Origin: a virus
Taxonomy: Duplodnaviria; Heunggongvirae; Uroviricota; Caudoviricetes
Strand: one strand, 5' to 3'
Length of the DNA stretch: 21,890 nt
Virus record (IMG/VR): IMGVR_UViG_2529293041_000014
Shown: positions 1,422 through 8,225 of the stretch, in pieces
Layout of the letters: each line of letters begins with the position of its first letter
How positions within the stretch are numbered: position 1 is the first letter of the stretch
Position numbers and translations under genes: made by a program
Notes under the pieces: model-generated
The model's input: the letters and a program-made list of their open reading frames with translations, nothing else
Told to the model about the DNA's origin: nothing
The model's database searches: none

Positions 1422-3893
1422 TTAAAAATCAGCCTGATTCGGGATCAGTTTTTGCCAGATAACTGAAACGTATTTTGCTTGGTAACGGGCGTCATCAAGT
1501 GCATTATGGCGCTCACCTTCGAATGGAATAGCCGTTCTGGCATCGAAGTCTATGGCTTTCCCCAGCTCAACGATTGTGCGTACATCGCGATCGTTGTAGT
1601 AACGCCACGGGCAGGGGATCCCCTGCCGTTCGTATGAACGGCGCAAAATCGTGTTGTCGAAGTTGGCTCCATTTCCCCAGACCTGAACAAAAAATTCACC
1701 GGAGTTTTCGTCGATAAATTCCCGCAATTGTAACAGTGCATCATCTAACGGGATTTCATCGGTCATAATGGCAGATTGCGCTTCGCGTGATTGCTTAAGC
1801 CACCATTTAATGGTGTCCCGATCAATGACCCCGCCAGCAGTTTCCAGATCGATAGTCTTACTAAATTCCGGTCCCATATCTCCGGTTTGCGGATCGAAAA
1901 ATATTGCACCTATTGAGATGATCGGGGCATCAGGATTTTTTCCCATGGTTTCAAGGTCGATCATTAGATGGTCACACGTCCTGCTGGTGGATGTGATTTC
2001 GTGATGACCGTTCACCTTAATTGAGTGATCTGCCGTCTCGCCAGTTTCATTATCGCTATCGTGATGCTGATTGCCGTCAGTGTTCTCCTTGTGTGGATGT
2101 TCAGCGCCTTCCATTTCCTCCGGATCATCTTCCTGAACTTCAACCTGATACTCTTCATCGAATGTTTCCTGGTATGTTGCGTCGCCCATCACCGCGCCAC
2201 AATCAGGGCAGTTGCCGCCGCCGGTCTGACCGCAGGCGGTGCAGACTTTTTCCACTTCCTGTTGCGCCACTGGTTCAGGCTGTTTCGTTTCTGGCTCGTT
2301 TTGTAACGCATTTGGGCTGTTTTGTTCCGCTTTCTGGCCGTTCTGTTCCGTTTCTTGCTGGTTCTGATTCACTGAATCGCGGGTTTCAATCCCCTTCACC
2401 CATTTCGGATCATTCTGGTCGCTAATCCCTGCAACAAATTCTCCGCGAGAGGCAGCAAGCAACTTATCGGCGTCAGGCTGGCTGATATTGGCTGCCTGCA
2501 TAATTTTGTTTACTTCGTCAGCGGTAACTTTTACCGGCTCTGGTTGTGCGGTCGTGTCAGATGCACCAGTATTTTGTTGTGAACCTGAGTATGTACTGTT
2601 TTTGCGGGCGAAATATTCTTCTTTCGTGATTTCAGTAGCCCCGGCAGCCAGCGCCTTATCCAGACCAGAAAGTTTGTTTGCGCGACCGTATTTTTCGCCA
2701 TCCTTGTCGGTGAAGAGGAAGTAGAACGGCCCTTCACGCTCTACAGATGGTTCGACTTCCACTTTGCATTCGGTTTTTTCGTTGTCCGGAATTGCCGTTT
2801 CCACTGCATCAGTTTCTGGTACTGGCGACGAGAGAGTATCAGTTGCGCTCTGATTTCTTCCTTCATCTTCAAACACGCCCTTTGTAGTCAGGTATTCAGT
2901 AATGTATTTGTTCAGTGCCACAGGGTCTTTGTGAATGTCGATCGGACGTTCACGGACAAGGCCAAAAATAGTCTGGCGGTCGTAGCGAAGGGCATCAGGC
3001 TGTTTGCGCATTGATGCCGAGATACGCTTCCAGTCTTCGCGGTCGTTGTCGATAACTTCATTTTTTGCCCAGCGATGGATGCTGCCGTCAATGTTTCCGG
3101 CATCCACATCACCAGGCCAGAGAGCGTAGGCCAGTTCGTCATCCAGTGTTTTCCATGTCTGCTTGTATTCGCGATGAATGGCAGCAATGACCGGGCTGAT
3201 TTTTCCTGTTGAATTTTCAGTGTGCTGTTGATTGGCTCTGGCGCGGGCGAGATCAACAACAGACGTGTATTTTCCGGTTTCCTTGCGTTCACCTTCGCGA
3301 CGTTTTTTCCAGATGCGCATCTCTGCCTGAATTTCGGGCCATTTGGCACCAGGCTTACATTTATGCTTAACCCACCCGATGGCATGCAGCTTAAGCTCCG
3401 GATACATGGCGTTAACTTCTGGCATTTTCATCAACGCTTCAACGATATGTCCGTCGAATGTTGCCATGTCTTCCTGCAACAATTCCTGTGCGCTAATAAC
3501 CATATCAACGGTGATGTTTTCACATGTGTCGAACTTAACCATGACAGCGTTCGGTACTTCAGGGGCCAGCTTGTCAAAAGTGACGTTCATCGGATCTGAT
3601 TCAGTCTCAACCGGGACAAAGGAAGCAGACTCCTCATCCCAGCGGTTTTCCTGCATATATTCAGCATCCCAGGAATCGAGGGCAGGGCGGGGTATGCCGG
3701 GTTTATCCTCACAGACAATAAATTTATAAGCGCAGTCCTGAGCTGCAGGGAATTGCTCCAGAAATTGCCAATGAAATTTTGCGCGTGCGCGACGCTCATC
3801 ACCAGCTTCAATGGCAGTGGCCACCGCAACAGCGCTATCTTCTTTTATGGCCTGTTCATCAGGAATAGCAGCGCAAATAAAGACTTTACTCAT
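1422..3893 (-). CDS. Prophage exonuclease (in the exo/RecE position) with C-terminal DEDDh DnaQ-like 3'-5' exonuclease domain, acidic linker and CxxC-x7-CxxC zinc ribbon
   Basis: 823-aa ORF; Exo I/II/III motifs readable in the translation (IDLET with D646/E648, WGNGANFD with D746, HNALDD with H796/D801); zinc ribbon C551/C554/C562/C565; sits between xis and the dicB module. Confidence 0.7.
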   Translation of the reverse strand: MSKVFICAAIPDEQAIKEDSAVAVATAIEAGDERRARAKFHWQFLEQFPAAQDCAYKFIVCEDKPGIPRPALDSWDAEYMQENRWDEESASFVPVETESDPMNVTFDKLAPEVPNAVMVKFDTCENITVDMVISAQELLQEDMATFDGHIVEALMKMPEVNAMYPELKLHAIGWVKHKCKPGAKWPEIQAEMRIWKKRREGERKETGKYTSVVDLARARANQQHTENSTGKISPVIAAIHREYKQTWKTLDDELAYALWPGDVDAGNIDGSIHRWAKNEVIDNDREDWKRISASMRKQPDALRYDRQTIFGLVRERPIDIHKDPVALNKYITEYLTTKGVFEDEGRNQSATDTLSSPVPETDAVETAIPDNEKTECKVEVEPSVEREGPFYFLFTDKDGEKYGRANKLSGLDKALAAGATEITKEEYFARKNSTYSGSQQNTGASDTTAQPEPVKVTADEVNKIMQAANISQPDADKLLAASRGEFVAGISDQNDPKWVKGIETRDSVNQNQQETEQNGQKAEQNSPNALQNEPETKQPEPVAQQEVEKVCTACGQTGGGNCPDCGAVMGDATYQETFDEEYQVEVQEDDPEEMEGAEHPHKENTDGNQHHDSDNETGETADHSIKVNGHHEITSTSRTCDHLMIDLETMGKNPDAPIISIGAIFFDPQTGDMGPEFSKTIDLETAGGVIDRDTIKWWLKQSREAQSAIMTDEIPLDDALLQLREFIDENSGEFFVQVWGNGANFDNTILRRSYERQGIPCPWRYYNDRDVRTIVELGKAIDFDARTAIPFEGERHNALDDARYQAKYVSVIWQKLIPNQADF

Positions 3894-5989: not shown

Positions 5990-6409
5990 CTATGATGCGT
6001 TTTGTGCTTTCTTTTTACGGATTTCTTCGTAGATCATATTGTAATACTGTTTTTTCTCTTCAAGAGTTTTTAATAATTTATCCGCTTCACTTTCTGGCAG
6101 TTCGTCTAAGAGATCTAAAAAAATACGTTGTCGTGGCGTTAGAACCCTTGTTTCATAACTGGAGGCTGTGTTCGTTGATGATGAAACGATACCATCCATC
6201 CATCCCCGGGGTAACCCAAAGGACTCTTCGATAATCTCCACCATATCATCAGCGATCCGTTTTTTTCCCTTTTTCCCCTCTGGGTACAACATTCTTGATA
6301 CATAAGAAGGCTCGCGCCCGATCTTTCTGGCCACGTTAACCGCTTTACCATCGCATTTCTCATCACGAATTTTGATGAGTTGCTGTCGTCTAAATTCATA
6401 TTTGTCCAT
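5990..6409 (-). CDS. Phage repressor, cI/DicA-like HTH protein
   Basis: 139-aa ORF divergent from a Cro-like gene; C-terminal segment LDLLDELPESEADKLLKTLEEKKQYYNMIYEEI resembles the DicA C-terminus (LELFNALPESEQD...); flanked on both sides by operator-like palindromes. Confidence 0.7.
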   Translation of the reverse strand: MDKYEFRRQQLIKIRDEKCDGKAVNVARKIGREPSYVSRMLYPEGKKGKKRIADDMVEIIEESFGLPRGWMDGIVSSSTNTASSYETRVLTPRQRIFLDLLDELPESEADKLLKTLEEKKQYYNMIYEEIRKKKAQNAS

Positions 6410-6477
6410 AGGTAAATAATAGATGCGATTACCGCAAGGTAAACAACCTGTGGGTATTGACTTTTGTTTACCTGCGG
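6404..6477. promoter_or_regulatory. OR-like divergent promoter/operator region between repressor and cro-like gene
   Basis: Repeated TACC-N4-GGTA-type sites (taccgcaaggta at 6430-6441; degenerate copies gtccataggta at 6404-6415 and tacctgcgggtg near 6466-6477) in the 100-bp divergent intergenic region. Confidence 0.45.
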
Positions 6478-6509
6478 GTGTTCTTTGCTGTGTTTACTAA
6501 GGAGTAGCT

Positions 6510-6791
6510 ATGGAAGAATTAAGAATATTTCTCAATTCTCTTTCGTCAGATGAACAGCGTATGTTTGCATGCGAGTGTGGTACCAGCATCGGTTATCTAA
6601 GAAAGGCATTGAGTAAAGGTCAAGTGTTAGGGGCATCGTTATGTGTCCTTATTGAGCGAGCCAGTAATGGTGAAGTTACACGTCAGCAACTAAGGCCTTT
6701 TGATTGGATGAATATTTGGCCCGAGCTGGAAGATACCAAAACGTTAACACAACCACTTTCTAGGAGCTTGATTCATGAAAATCAAGCATGA
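6510..6791 (+). CDS. Cro/YdaS-like small transcriptional regulator
   Basis: 93-aa ORF with AAGGAG RBS, divergent from the repressor gene, followed by ydaT; position and size typical of a cro analogue. Confidence 0.6.
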   Translation: MEELRIFLNSLSSDEQRMFACECGTSIGYLRKALSKGQVLGASLCVLIERASNGEVTRQQLRPFDWMNIWPELEDTKTLTQPLSRSLIHENQA

Positions 6792-7200
6792 ACACATCCG
6801 CATGGCGATGAATGTCTGGGCGCATCCGGACGGCGAAAAAGTGCCGGCTGCGAAAATTACCAAAGCGTATTTCGAGCTGGGAATGACGTTCCCGGAACTG
6901 TATGACGACAGCCATCCGGAAGCCCTGGCCCGTAATACCCAGAAAATTTTCCGTTGGCTGGATAAAGACACCCCTGATGCTGTTGAAAAAATGCAGGCTC
7001 TGTTACCGGCGATCGAAAAGGCGATGCCGCCTTTGCTGGTGGCCCGTATGCGCAGCCACAGTTCTGAATATTACCGTGAGATCGTCGAACGGAGGGATCG
7101 GCTGGTGAAGGATGTCGATGATTTTGTTGCGTCAGCGGTTGTTTTGTATGACCAGATGAATCGCGGCGGCCCGGCAGGGAATGCTGTGGTGATGCACTAA
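6775..7200 (+). CDS. ydaT: YdaT-family protein (toxin YdaT-like)
   Basis: 141-aa ORF; N-terminus MKIKHEHI and C-terminal half (...IEKAMPPLLVARMRSHSSEYYREIVERRDRLVKDVDDF...) match the Rac YdaT family as I recall it; 17-nt overlap with the cro-like gene. Confidence 0.65.
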   Translation: MKIKHEHIRMAMNVWAHPDGEKVPAAKITKAYFELGMTFPELYDDSHPEALARNTQKIFRWLDKDTPDAVEKMQALLPAIEKAMPPLLVARMRSHSSEYYREIVERRDRLVKDVDDFVASAVVLYDQMNRGGPAGNAVVMH

Positions 7201-7222
7201 AAGCACGGTGTTCGGGGGTTTT

Positions 7223-8185
7223 ATGAGCAGCAAGCTTCATGGTCTTGTCTGGGAAGGGTGCGCCTTCACCGGCATGATCTTATCCAGGGTGGCGGTTATG
7301 GCCCGTCTTGCAGACTACAGCAATGACGAGGGCGTGTCATGGCCTGCCATTGAAACTATCCGGCGTCAGATCGGTGCAAGAAGTGAATCCACAGTGAAAT
7401 CGGCTATTGCAGAACTGGCGAAAGAGGGCTGGCTGACGAAGGAAGAGCGTAAGGTCGGTGGGCGTAATGTAAGCAATATCTATCGGCTTAATGTGGAAAA
7501 ACTCGAAGCAGCTGCGGCGGCGGCGCGTGAGTCATATAAACCGAAAAGAAAAATTAGCCCGGCAAAAAATGACCCGTTAACAGTTGACCCGTCAAATATT
7601 GACCCCTCAACGGTTGACCCGTCAAATTTTGATGGATCAACTGTTGATAAAAAACTGCCGATTAGGGGGGCGATGATTGACCCCGATCCGTCAGTATTAA
7701 AACCTGATCCGTCAGATAAAAGATCTTCTTGTCCGGACGCTTCGCAACCGGACCCGCAGACGGCTGAACAGGATTTTTTAACCCGACACCCTGACGCGGT
7801 TGTGTTCAGTGCGAAAAAACGCCAGTGGGGAAGTCAGGAAGATTTGGTGTGCGCACAGTGGATCTGGGGACGAATCGTGAGTCTTTACGAGCAGGCGGCC
7901 AGCTATGATGGCGAGATCGCTAGACCGAAAGAACCCAACTGGACAGCATGGGCCAATGACGTTCGCACAATGCGGATGCTGGATGGCAGAACTCACAGAC
8001 AAATTTGTGAAATGTTTGGGCGTCTCCAGCGGGATTCGTTCTGGGTAAAAAACATCATGAGTCCGGCAAAACTCCGGGAAAAATGGGATGAACTGGTTAT
8101 CCGCCTGGGGCGTTCGCCTGCGCAGCGTTGCGTGAATCACATTTCTGAACCGGACACTGAAATTCCGCCGGGCTTCAGGGGGTAA
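7223..8185 (+). CDS. Replication initiation protein (lambda O-like / YdaU-like), with internal iteron repeats
   Basis: ORF of about 320 aa after the cro/ydaT pair; GGGGG RBS before ATG 7223 (the ORF could start at 7208); contains five 15-bp direct repeats encoding a (T/N)VDPS pentapeptide array, as ori iterons sit inside lambda O. Confidence 0.65.
   Translation: MSSKLHGLVWEGCAFTGMILSRVAVMARLADYSNDEGVSWPAIETIRRQIGARSESTVKSAIAELAKEGWLTKEERKVGGRNVSNIYRLNVEKLEAAAAAARESYKPKRKISPAKNDPLTVDPSNIDPSTVDPSNFDGSTVDKKLPIRGAMIDPDPSVLKPDPSDKRSSCPDASQPDPQTAEQDFLTRHPDAVVFSAKKRQWGSQEDLVCAQWIWGRIVSLYEQAASYDGEIARPKEPNWTAWANDVRTMRMLDGRTHRQICEMFGRLQRDSFWVKNIMSPAKLREKWDELVIRLGRSPAQRCVNHISEPDTEIPPGFRG
7570..7644. 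repeat. Putative replication-origin iterons: five tandem 15-bp repeats (TGACCCGTCAA core, partly palindromic) followed by an A-rich tract
   Basis: tgacccgttaacagt / tgacccgtcaaatat / tgacccctcaacggt / tgacccgtcaaattt / tgatggatcaactgt read directly from the sequence, inside the O-like gene. Confidence 0.55.
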
Positions 8186-8225
8186 GTGTTAATTTCTGGT
8201 CATGAGGTAATTTTCAGGAGGGCTT

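Follow-up and report, generated by a model that had tools for sequence, protein, structure and literature searches.

The stretch of DNA analysed here, called the window throughout, comprises 21,890 nucleotides of a virus (Caudoviricetes; IMG/VR record IMGVR_UViG_2529293041_000014) and contains a gene for a replication initiator resembling the O protein of phage lambda, within which lies an array of 15-bp direct repeats. An earlier note, made from the letters of the sequence alone, had read this array as the iterons of a replication origin that double as a pentapeptide linker in the protein. The gene does belong with O-like initiators, as was claimed: it matches phrog_391 ("replication initiation O-like") at E=2e-115, and its product combines a winged-helix N-terminal domain with a C-terminal domain homologous to that of lambda O. 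In RefSeq the gene begins at the ATG at 7223, not at the alternative GTG at 7208. The RefSeq protein WP_000095673 is 99.9% identical to the window initiator; full-length copies of the gene occur in 1514 of 5426 complete Escherichia coli genomes (~28%), and the open reading frame (ORF) is intact and 99-100% identical in ~1000 E. coli genomes. Current annotation describes it merely as a "helix-turn-helix domain-containing protein".

The sole Pfam match of the initiator is HTH_36 (aa 30-76, counted from the GTG start at 7208). An AlphaFold2 model, built from only 22 sequences, predicts a winged helix at aa 1-104 (topology H-H-H-H-beta-hairpin-H; predicted local distance difference test score, pLDDT, 78-92), disorder at aa 112-200 (pLDDT <50) and then a helical C-domain. 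A Foldseek search with the N-domain returned only generic winged-helix (wHTH) regulators of the MarR, PadR and ArsR types, including some structures with DNA. By BLASTP, aa 182-300 align with aa 171-277 of lambda O at 39% identity (E=5e-26), and no similarity to the N-terminal part of lambda O was detected. Phage_rep_O (PF04492) and TIGR01610 are matched by lambda O only, the window initiator having no NCBIfam match at all, and a PDB sequence search with the family profile gave no meaningful match. Judged from these comparisons, the N-domain lies outside the lambda O (Phage_rep_O) family, which is a caveat to the earlier reading, and the window initiator is best described as a domain-swapped O protein with the array in its predicted disordered linker. 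The array occupies nt 348-422 of the gene (aa 116-142), between the wHTH domain and the helical C-domain; Pfam has no match at aa 100-200, so that no curated pentapeptide-repeat model covers the linker.

Tandem Repeats Finder (TRF), a check proposed in the earlier note, detects the array (Table 1) at a period of 15 with 5.0 copies (score 66) and, with a higher score (96-101), at a period of 30 with 2.5-3 copies, indicating that two unit subtypes alternate; it also carries the start of the array back to 7549. Allowing at most one mismatch, TGACCCGTCAA occurs four times in the window, always in the array and at a spacing of exactly 15 bp, against a chance expectation of 0.49, and none of 100 dinucleotide shuffles of the window gave four matches. 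The 15-bp direct repeats are thus real by register, by TRF and by shuffling. The earlier description of five repeats with a partly palindromic core holds for four good units, which have the core TGACCC(G/C)T(C/T)AA, and fails for the fifth, whose centre TGATGGATCAA is close to the reverse complement of that core. The core TTGAC-CC-GTCAA has 5-bp inverted arms, and the half-sites TTGAC and GTCAA alternate along the array. The array as a whole can be folded into a 67-nt hairpin (-16.9 kcal/mol and z=-5.05 as DNA; z=-4.3 as RNA). As 15 bp are exactly five codons, the repeats are expected to give a DPS-type pentapeptide array in the linker, and the translation agrees: NDPLT-VDPSN-IDPST-VDPSN-FDGST-VDKK.

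Table 1. Features of the initiator gene and its putative origin (positions in the window; a dot marks features without strand).
Feature	Position	Strand	Details
O-like replication initiator gene, 320 aa	7223-8185	+	RefSeq start ATG 7223; alternative GTG 7208
N-terminal winged-helix DNA-binding domain, presumed iteron reader	7223-7537	+	aa 1-105; AlphaFold2, Foldseek
A-rich leader	7538-7569	+	AT skew 0.58, GC 0.40
Unit 0, degenerate, in register	7555-7569	+	TAGCCCGGCAAAAAA; within the A-rich leader 7538-7569
Five 15-bp units, putative iterons	7570-7644	+	TRF, core matching, family position weight matrix, synonymous entropy 0.16
Unit 1	7570	+	TGACCCGTTAACAGT (15-bp register)
Unit 2	7585	+	TGACCCGTCAAATAT (15-bp register)
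Unit 3	7600	+	TGACCCCTCAACGGT (15-bp register)
Unit 4	7615	+	TGACCCGTCAAATTT (15-bp register)
Unit 5	7630-7644	+	TGATGGATCAACTGT; centre inverted, TGATGGATCAA
Degenerate sixth unit (remnant) with A6 tract	7645-7657	+	TGATAAAAAACTG
Array-level dyad symmetry	7579-7645	.	33-nt arms, 79% complementary, axis ~7612; cruciform or hairpin potential
Conserved block	7676-7729	+	core-like ATTGACCCC, two GATCCGTCAG motifs (7685-7694, 7706-7715), moderately AT-rich tract
Inverted repeat GTCCGG...CCGGAC, also module joint	7724-7760	.	alignment of window, SfIV, mEp460 and Rac-like L002
C-terminal domain	7766-8122	+	aa 182-300; homologous to lambda O C-terminal domain
DUF977 gene ("Ren-like")	8226-8648	+	Pfam DUF977 E=2.6e-30, phrog_142; lambda's P position

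The A-rich stretch that the earlier note had placed behind the repeats amounts to just an A6 tract (7649-7654), and the richer A tract lies upstream of the array, in the leader. The AT-richer 30-mers are found at 7530-7559 (70% AT) and 7620-7649 (67%), and 7690-7729 in the downstream block has 63% AT; the patches at 7620-7649 and 7690-7729 reach the 82nd-86th percentile of 30-mer instability. GATC sites occur at 7685, 7706 and 7722 in this block and at 7635 in the array, that is, four in 91 bp (Poisson p=1.8e-4). A scan for promoters and terminators over 7200-8300 found no such site, and at E<=1 no Rfam family was found over 6400-9000, apart from a chance match of mir-250 to the palindromic array (E=0.11). 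Within 7711-7729 of the minus strand, GATCTTTTATCTG (7713-7725) agrees by eye with the oriC 13-mer consensus GATCTnTTnTTTT at 9 of its 11 specified positions, a likeness confined to the window clade.

For comparison, 324 homologues were gathered, along with 80 close viral contigs and a varied set of 80 genomic loci drawn from many genera of Enterobacterales; the selection tests were based on 50 dereplicated relatives (N-domain identity <93%), again from many Enterobacterales genera. Every member has a common plan, in which the winged-helix N-domain is followed by a variable number of 15-bp, five-codon units, an AAAAAA tract, a conserved block with two GATCC(G/A)TCAG motifs, and a C-domain that may be of several unrelated types. 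The repeats, whose absence from homologous O-like genes the earlier note had named as a finding that would speak against it, are present in 50 of the 50 dereplicated homologues. The position weight matrix of the family unit reads (A/T)TCTGAC-S-C-R-TCA-R-A-A, and the core TGAYNNNTCR was counted 166 times in linkers compared with 16 times elsewhere in the genes; a spacing of 15 bp clearly predominates. Genes have a median of five units; the window lineage has mostly five, and several of its copies have four.

Within these relatives, the array and the downstream block carry a signature of purifying selection at the nucleotide level. At columns with conserved amino acids, normalised codon entropy has a median of 0.88 in the N-domain (71 columns), of 0.16 in the array, for which differing unit numbers make the columns of the protein alignment approximate, and of 0.09 in the block, and array and block both differ from the N-domain by Mann-Whitney test (array p=7e-8; block p=4e-10). 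Serine is encoded by TCA or TCT in 86% of cases in the linker versus 20% in the N-domain. In the block, the codons GAT, TCA and AAA are each found in 100% and GTA in 98% of the 50 members, and the family also keeps the codons AAA AAA that close the array (lysine is AAA in 90% of members at that column). The aspartate codon is GAC in the array units and GAT in 100% of members at the two downstream motifs, so that two GATC sites are preserved there. The amino acids of the array, by contrast with its bases, are variable: the centre codon can specify P, A, G, T, R or H, and a change of DPS to DGS or EGS amounts to a flip of the centre of the DNA site from CCCG to CGGG. An overlapping gene was considered as the source of the synonymous constraint and ruled out, as no ORF of at least 40 aa exists in the other frames over 7570-7770. 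These patterns show that selection acts on the nucleotides of the array and block and not on the protein. Among relatives with the window's C-domain, the constraint runs from ~7583 to ~7762, with entropy returning to 0.6-0.9 after 7763, and the constrained element as a whole extends from ~7570 to ~7790; the interval 7570-7660 given in the earlier note was therefore too short.

In addition, comparison among clades showed that the repeat sequence follows the DNA-binding N-domain of the initiator. N-domains with STVRTAI / GNRN are accompanied by the unit TCTGACnnnTCAAAA, those with STVITAI / GQRN by CTGAACGTTCAG, a perfect palindrome, those of the window clade, (R/K)S.(S/T)TV(K/S).AI / GGRN, by TTGACCCnTCAA, and a fourth N-domain clade by TCTGGnGGTTCAGA. 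Exchanges of modules agree with this. Phages phiNP and SfIV have N-domain and repeats in common and different C-domains, and mosaic BLAST matches start at gene nt 478-511, within the conserved block or joint. Conversely, mEp460 has the window's C-domain (86% nucleotide identity), joint and DUF977 neighbour, together with an unrelated N-domain that has no Pfam match, so that the GTCCGG...CCGGAC joint is present even beside an unrelated N-domain. The O-like gene of mEp460 (L167 2332-2461, gene nt 331-460) contains five repeats of the form ..GGTCAAAATGnnnCG.. that recur every 23-24 bp; behind them comes a tract that is clearly AT-rich and includes two copies of TACAGAGAATA(C/A)AA. A third N-domain type, DUF1376, is found in ydaU of the Rac prophage of E. 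coli K-12, where four copies of AACAGATGTTCAA, spaced 33, 33 and 12, lie at gene nt ~353-444 (L168 2172-2263).

On the strength of these comparisons, we propose that the segment at ~7540-7760 is probably the replication origin of a lambdoid prophage, embedded in the linker-coding part of its initiator gene. The earlier reading, that an iteron array in an O-like gene doubles as a pentapeptide linker, is supported in that it agrees with all computational tests run. In such an origin, the initiator would be expressed from a pR-type operon (Cro-like, CII-like and O-like genes), and its winged-helix N-domain would bind cooperatively to the 15-bp units, in which conserved flanks surround the core TGAC-SS-GTCA, to form an O-some-like complex. 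At the conserved block, with its two GATCCGTCAG motifs and moderately AT-rich stretch closed by the GTCCGG...CCGGAC inverted repeat, the duplex would be destabilised, and/or initiation would be coupled to Dam methylation and SeqA. The lambda-O-type C-domain would then recruit the helicase via a loader, which in many relatives would be a phage DnaC-like protein and in the window prophage would have to be a host factor or some other factor. Protein binding, unwinding and origin activity, as well as any role of the GATC sites, we infer from this arrangement. Because the unit equals five codons and falls in a disordered linker, the DNA could adapt to binding and still encode xD(P/A/G)Sx, and a gain or loss of units would leave the frame intact.

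Several observations weigh against this interpretation. The 15-bp period corresponds to ~1.4 helical turns, below the classical 20-24-bp iteron spacing. The best 30-mers reach only 63-70% AT, at the 82nd-91st percentile of the window for instability and none in the top 5%, and these moderate patches are unlike the clear AT-rich tracts of the lambda and mEp460 origins or arrays. Relaxed DnaA-box matches are not enriched (54 in the window versus 49 expected), one exact box at 7492-7500 and one with a single mismatch at 7642-7650 being at chance level, and no consensus site for integration host factor lies near the region. Behind the initiator, the window has no gene for a P- or DnaC-like loader. 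The prophage has undergone rearrangement, as seen from its two Q genes, its IS66 element and its additional integrase, so that the window copy may be inactive. Two database proteins among the close relatives have ~3 and ~2 units; the co-variation of repeats and N-domains comes from only 3-4 clades, with phylogenetically non-independent sequences; and the conservation of the downstream block could be due in part to its use as a recombination joint.

Other explanations of the same features were weighed against an origin. The repeat might be purely a feature of the protein, an xDPSx linker born of slippage in which DNA similarity reflects recent duplication and has no function of its own. Such a view accommodates the predicted disorder of the encoded linker, the block duplications that enlarge some arrays (45 bp in Edwardsiella, L006, and larger in Providencia, L018) and the differing copy number among close relatives, but it is very improbable: codon identity is kept across genera whose N-domains are synonymously saturated, the single-copy downstream block, beyond the reach of slippage homogenisation, is frozen too, and TGA...TCA and the flanks are kept while the amino acids vary (SDASK, SVPSK, VDPSN). 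Moreover, the repeats that mEp460 has at this linker position, beside the same C-domain, are wholly different and not of the pentapeptide kind, and no Pfam repeat family is matched. It is also conceivable that the conserved feature is secondary structure, whether a cruciform, a single-strand hairpin (for instance one that signals priming or the assembly of a primosome), or a hairpin in the mRNA by which translation of the initiator is slowed. The hairpin of the window array has its counterparts in the family, since arrays in 45 of the 50 relatives fold better than mononucleotide shuffles (median z=-4.3), and several arrays contain units in both orientations, unit 4 of SfIV being the reverse complement of unit 2. 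However, any array of dyad-armed units (TGAC/GTCA) gives such z-scores, which are therefore non-discriminating; the predicted structures vary between members, no Rfam family was matched, as noted, and conservation falls on specific bases and on asymmetric flanks (TC upstream, AAA downstream) instead of on pairing partners. We thus consider structure as the selected feature distinctly unlikely; a hairpin would in any case be compatible with origin function, as the lambda ori also has a palindrome.

The array could alternatively be a protein-binding DNA element other than an origin, serving autoregulation, a transcriptional roadblock or copy control, or the block could be a recombination linker for the exchange of N- and C-modules. 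The mosaic breakpoints do fall exactly in the conserved block, with a joint common even to mEp460, and the weak AT-rich unwinding element and the missing loader gene of the window point the same way. An operator role is opposed by the lack of core copies near the early promoter or elsewhere in the window, and a recombination joint leaves unexplained why a motif repeated every 15 bp should change in step with the DNA-binding domain. The N-domains of this family, of mEp460 and of K-12 YdaU are of three unrelated types, and each goes with an array of its own at codons ~115-150 of an O-like gene, which is the known position of the lambda ori in the O gene (PMC7466680), and on balance a function other than initiation seems unlikely. 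A further possibility qualifies rather than competes with an origin: the element could be an origin by descent that persists as a non-functional fossil in a rearranged, possibly cryptic prophage. The two Q genes, the IS66 insertion, the integrase in the place expected for late genes and the lack of a loader gene are consistent with decay, as are the point-mutated units common in close E. coli relatives (DPS to APS, DQS or DLS). Nevertheless, the initiator ORF is intact and nearly invariant in E. coli, the array has the modal five units, and the functional phage mEp460 likewise pairs this C-domain with DUF977 and no loader gene, so that we regard a dead copy as doubtful, though by no means far-fetched.

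If the segment is an origin, the 15-bp, five-codon period could itself be an adaptation that makes the iteron array frame-neutral, to which the array dyad and the invariant GATC pair would add a structural (cruciform or hairpin) and methylation-sensing layer absent in lambda. The result would be a distinct origin architecture in a large Enterobacterales prophage family, with initiation unlike that of the lambda O-some in its weak AT-rich tract and, in many members, its lack of a loader encoded by the phage, DUF977 being a possible partner; taken as a whole, this extension is speculative and rather unlikely. Under such a frame-neutral design, the strength or specificity of the origin could be tuned by gain, loss or inversion of single units while the initiator stays intact. 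Plasmid records with the module were rejected as proof of autonomous replication, as these are mostly prophage-like regions in very large plasmid-labelled records. One 15,977-bp circular record, pZ1322PEC0161-2 (NZ_CP148542.1, L169), contains only a lambdoid early-to-lysis segment, made up of a repressor gene, cro, an O-like gene with an identical array, and DnaC-like, DUF977, Q, holin and lysozyme genes, and plasmid replicon typing gave no type. It represents either an episome of the lambda-dv kind or an artefact of assembly, and homopolymer frameshifts in its ydaT-like and O-like genes make it unusable as evidence of replication.

The surroundings of the initiator gene are those of a lambdoid prophage. 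Upstream lie a repressor gene (5990-6409, minus strand), a YdaS/Cro-like gene and a YdaT/CII-like gene, an order that puts the initiator at the O position of a lambdoid early-right operon. The DUF977 gene follows, and the same pairing of O-like and DUF977 genes occurs in mEp460 (L167 3008-3409). A tblastn search of up to 2.5 kb downstream in the window-type arrangement found no P or DnaC-like gene; among the 80 close relatives, a DnaC-like gene is present in 56 and DUF977 only in 24. The C-domain of the initiator is of the lambda-O type, a domain reported to bind P, yet no P follows; DUF977 might conceivably act in its place. In one relative (L001), genes for an ATPase and a cytosine methyltransferase come downstream of DUF977 and, in the part of the locus covered, ahead of any Q gene.

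Farther downstream in the window, two Q-type antiterminator genes lie ~5 kb apart (9324-9857 and 14370-15059; Pfam Phage_antitermQ and Phage_antiter_Q), and their being different suggests a composite or rearranged prophage. Between them, three contiguous or overlapping ORFs of 234, 142 and 365 aa occupy 9854-12010 on the minus strand; they have no Pfam or PADLOC match and fall only into PHROGs of unknown function (phrog_9664, 11490 and 12777), and the group looks like a moron or a candidate defence cassette. An IS66-family element (transposase and accessory genes) at 15623-18238 and a phage-type integrase at 19813-20553 are found where late genes would be expected, and the prophage is probably truncated or adjoins another element. 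Apart from the array, TRF found two further tandem repeats in the window, one at 2280-2355 (period 21 with 3.7 copies) in an 823-aa exonuclease-like ORF (1422-3893, minus strand) and the other at 21318-21379 (period 30 with 2.1 copies) in an ORF starting at 20970.

These results assign a probable origin to the replication module found in ~28% of complete E. coli genomes, in Enterobacterales prophages and in serotype-converting Shigella phages. They also provide a clean natural case of dual coding, in which a predicted binding-site array and a protein linker share the same bases and frozen synonymous sites are the signature; as a caution, such synonymous sites should be neither assumed neutral nor recoded in engineered phages. 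Pairs of repeats and N-domains may predict the replication specificity or incompatibility groups of prophages, and they suggest fragments for minimal-replicon vectors. The concept is already known, being the lambda paradigm in another initiator family, and PHROGs already label the family "O-like". A specialist would thus not be surprised, although the codon-phased array with its very clear synonymous-constraint signature is tidy and directly testable.

Among known systems, mEp460 and YdaU resemble the window in that codons ~110-150 of their initiator genes hold an array of repeats, and differ from it in that their N-domains, repeat sequences and periods (23-24 bp and 33 bp) are unrelated to those of the window. 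Rac carries an active origin, oriJ (PMC3945230), for which the AACAGATGTTCAA repeats of YdaU are a candidate core on sequence grounds. As a known counterpart of the window element, however, oriJ/YdaU was dropped, as the N-domain (DUF1376) and repeats are different and the oriJ data are not directly transferable. In the iteron plasmids P1, F, R6K and pPS10, a winged-helix Rep protein acts on tandem 17-22-bp iterons (PMC4980987). The window shares with them direct repeats paired with a winged-helix initiator (binding here being presumed), a sequence specific to the initiator, and GATC clusters, which lie near some plasmid origins such as that of P1. The plasmid iterons are intergenic, follow one another at ~two helical turns and occur together with DnaA boxes and a strong AT-rich DNA unwinding element, unlike the window repeats, which are coding and 15 bp apart.

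Close relatives among described phages are the Shigella/E. coli phages SfIV, SfII and phiNP and related Klebsiella and Yersinia phages, whose initiators, annotated as "replication protein O" or "primosomal protein I", have the same N-domain family (62-67% identity). These phages have a 15-bp array at the same place with the core TGAC-SS-GTCA, followed by the downstream block GATCCGTCAG...GATCC(A/G)TCAGATAAAA. Their flanks are TCTGAC...TCAAAA, encoding SD(P/A)SK, versus tTTGAC...TCAAnn, encoding xDPSx, in the window; their arrays lack the 30-bp alternation of the window, and some have another C-domain, which in phiNP is Phg_2220_C. In the literature searched, outside which some older papers fall, there is no description of this origin, of its 15-bp units or of an origin in these phages.

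An origin inside an O-type gene is well established (PMC7466680, PMC6022878), the Stx phages 933W and P27 having six-iteron origins and the P27 iterons having been recoded synonymously (PMC7466680), and the cro-cII-O order of the early-right operon has been described (PMC8630535). Lambda O has four iterons at gene nt 349-433, with starts 20, 24 and 23 bp apart, followed by a ~43-bp AT-rich tract and a palindrome with 12-bp arms. The window matches this plan closely, and the ori-lambda-like placement claimed in the earlier note stands: the repeats, which have internal dyad symmetry, lie within the initiator's own gene between its DNA-binding N-domain and its C-domain, start at nt 348 versus nt 349 in lambda, and are followed by an AT-richer segment, an inverted repeat and the C-domain, in that order. 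The joint GTCCGG...CCGGAC of the window is analogous to the lambda palindrome distal to the AT-rich tract, the C-domains are homologous, and the position in a cro-cII-O operon is the same. The lambda ori palindrome GTCAGAGAATTCTGGCGAATCC (L166 863-890, SSENSGES) also resembles the family sequence CCGTCAGAATCTGGCGGGGATCC (SfIV, L003 ~1577-1606, PSESGGD), a piece absent from the window clade, and this likeness may be a remnant of common linker and origin ancestry despite unrelated N-domains. In contrast, the window N-domain is of the Pfam HTH_36 type and not Phage_rep_O/TIGR01610, its units are 15 bp at a strict 15-bp period rather than 18-bp iterons at a 20-24-bp spacing, its core TGACCCGTCAA is unrelated to the lambda ATCCCTCAAAACGAGGGA, its AT-rich tract is weak, a pair of GATC motifs is conserved, and no P gene comes next. 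As far as can be judged from sequence, therefore, the element appears ori-lambda-like in layout and C-domain, and distinct in its N-domain family, in the size and spacing of its iterons and with respect to the P gene.

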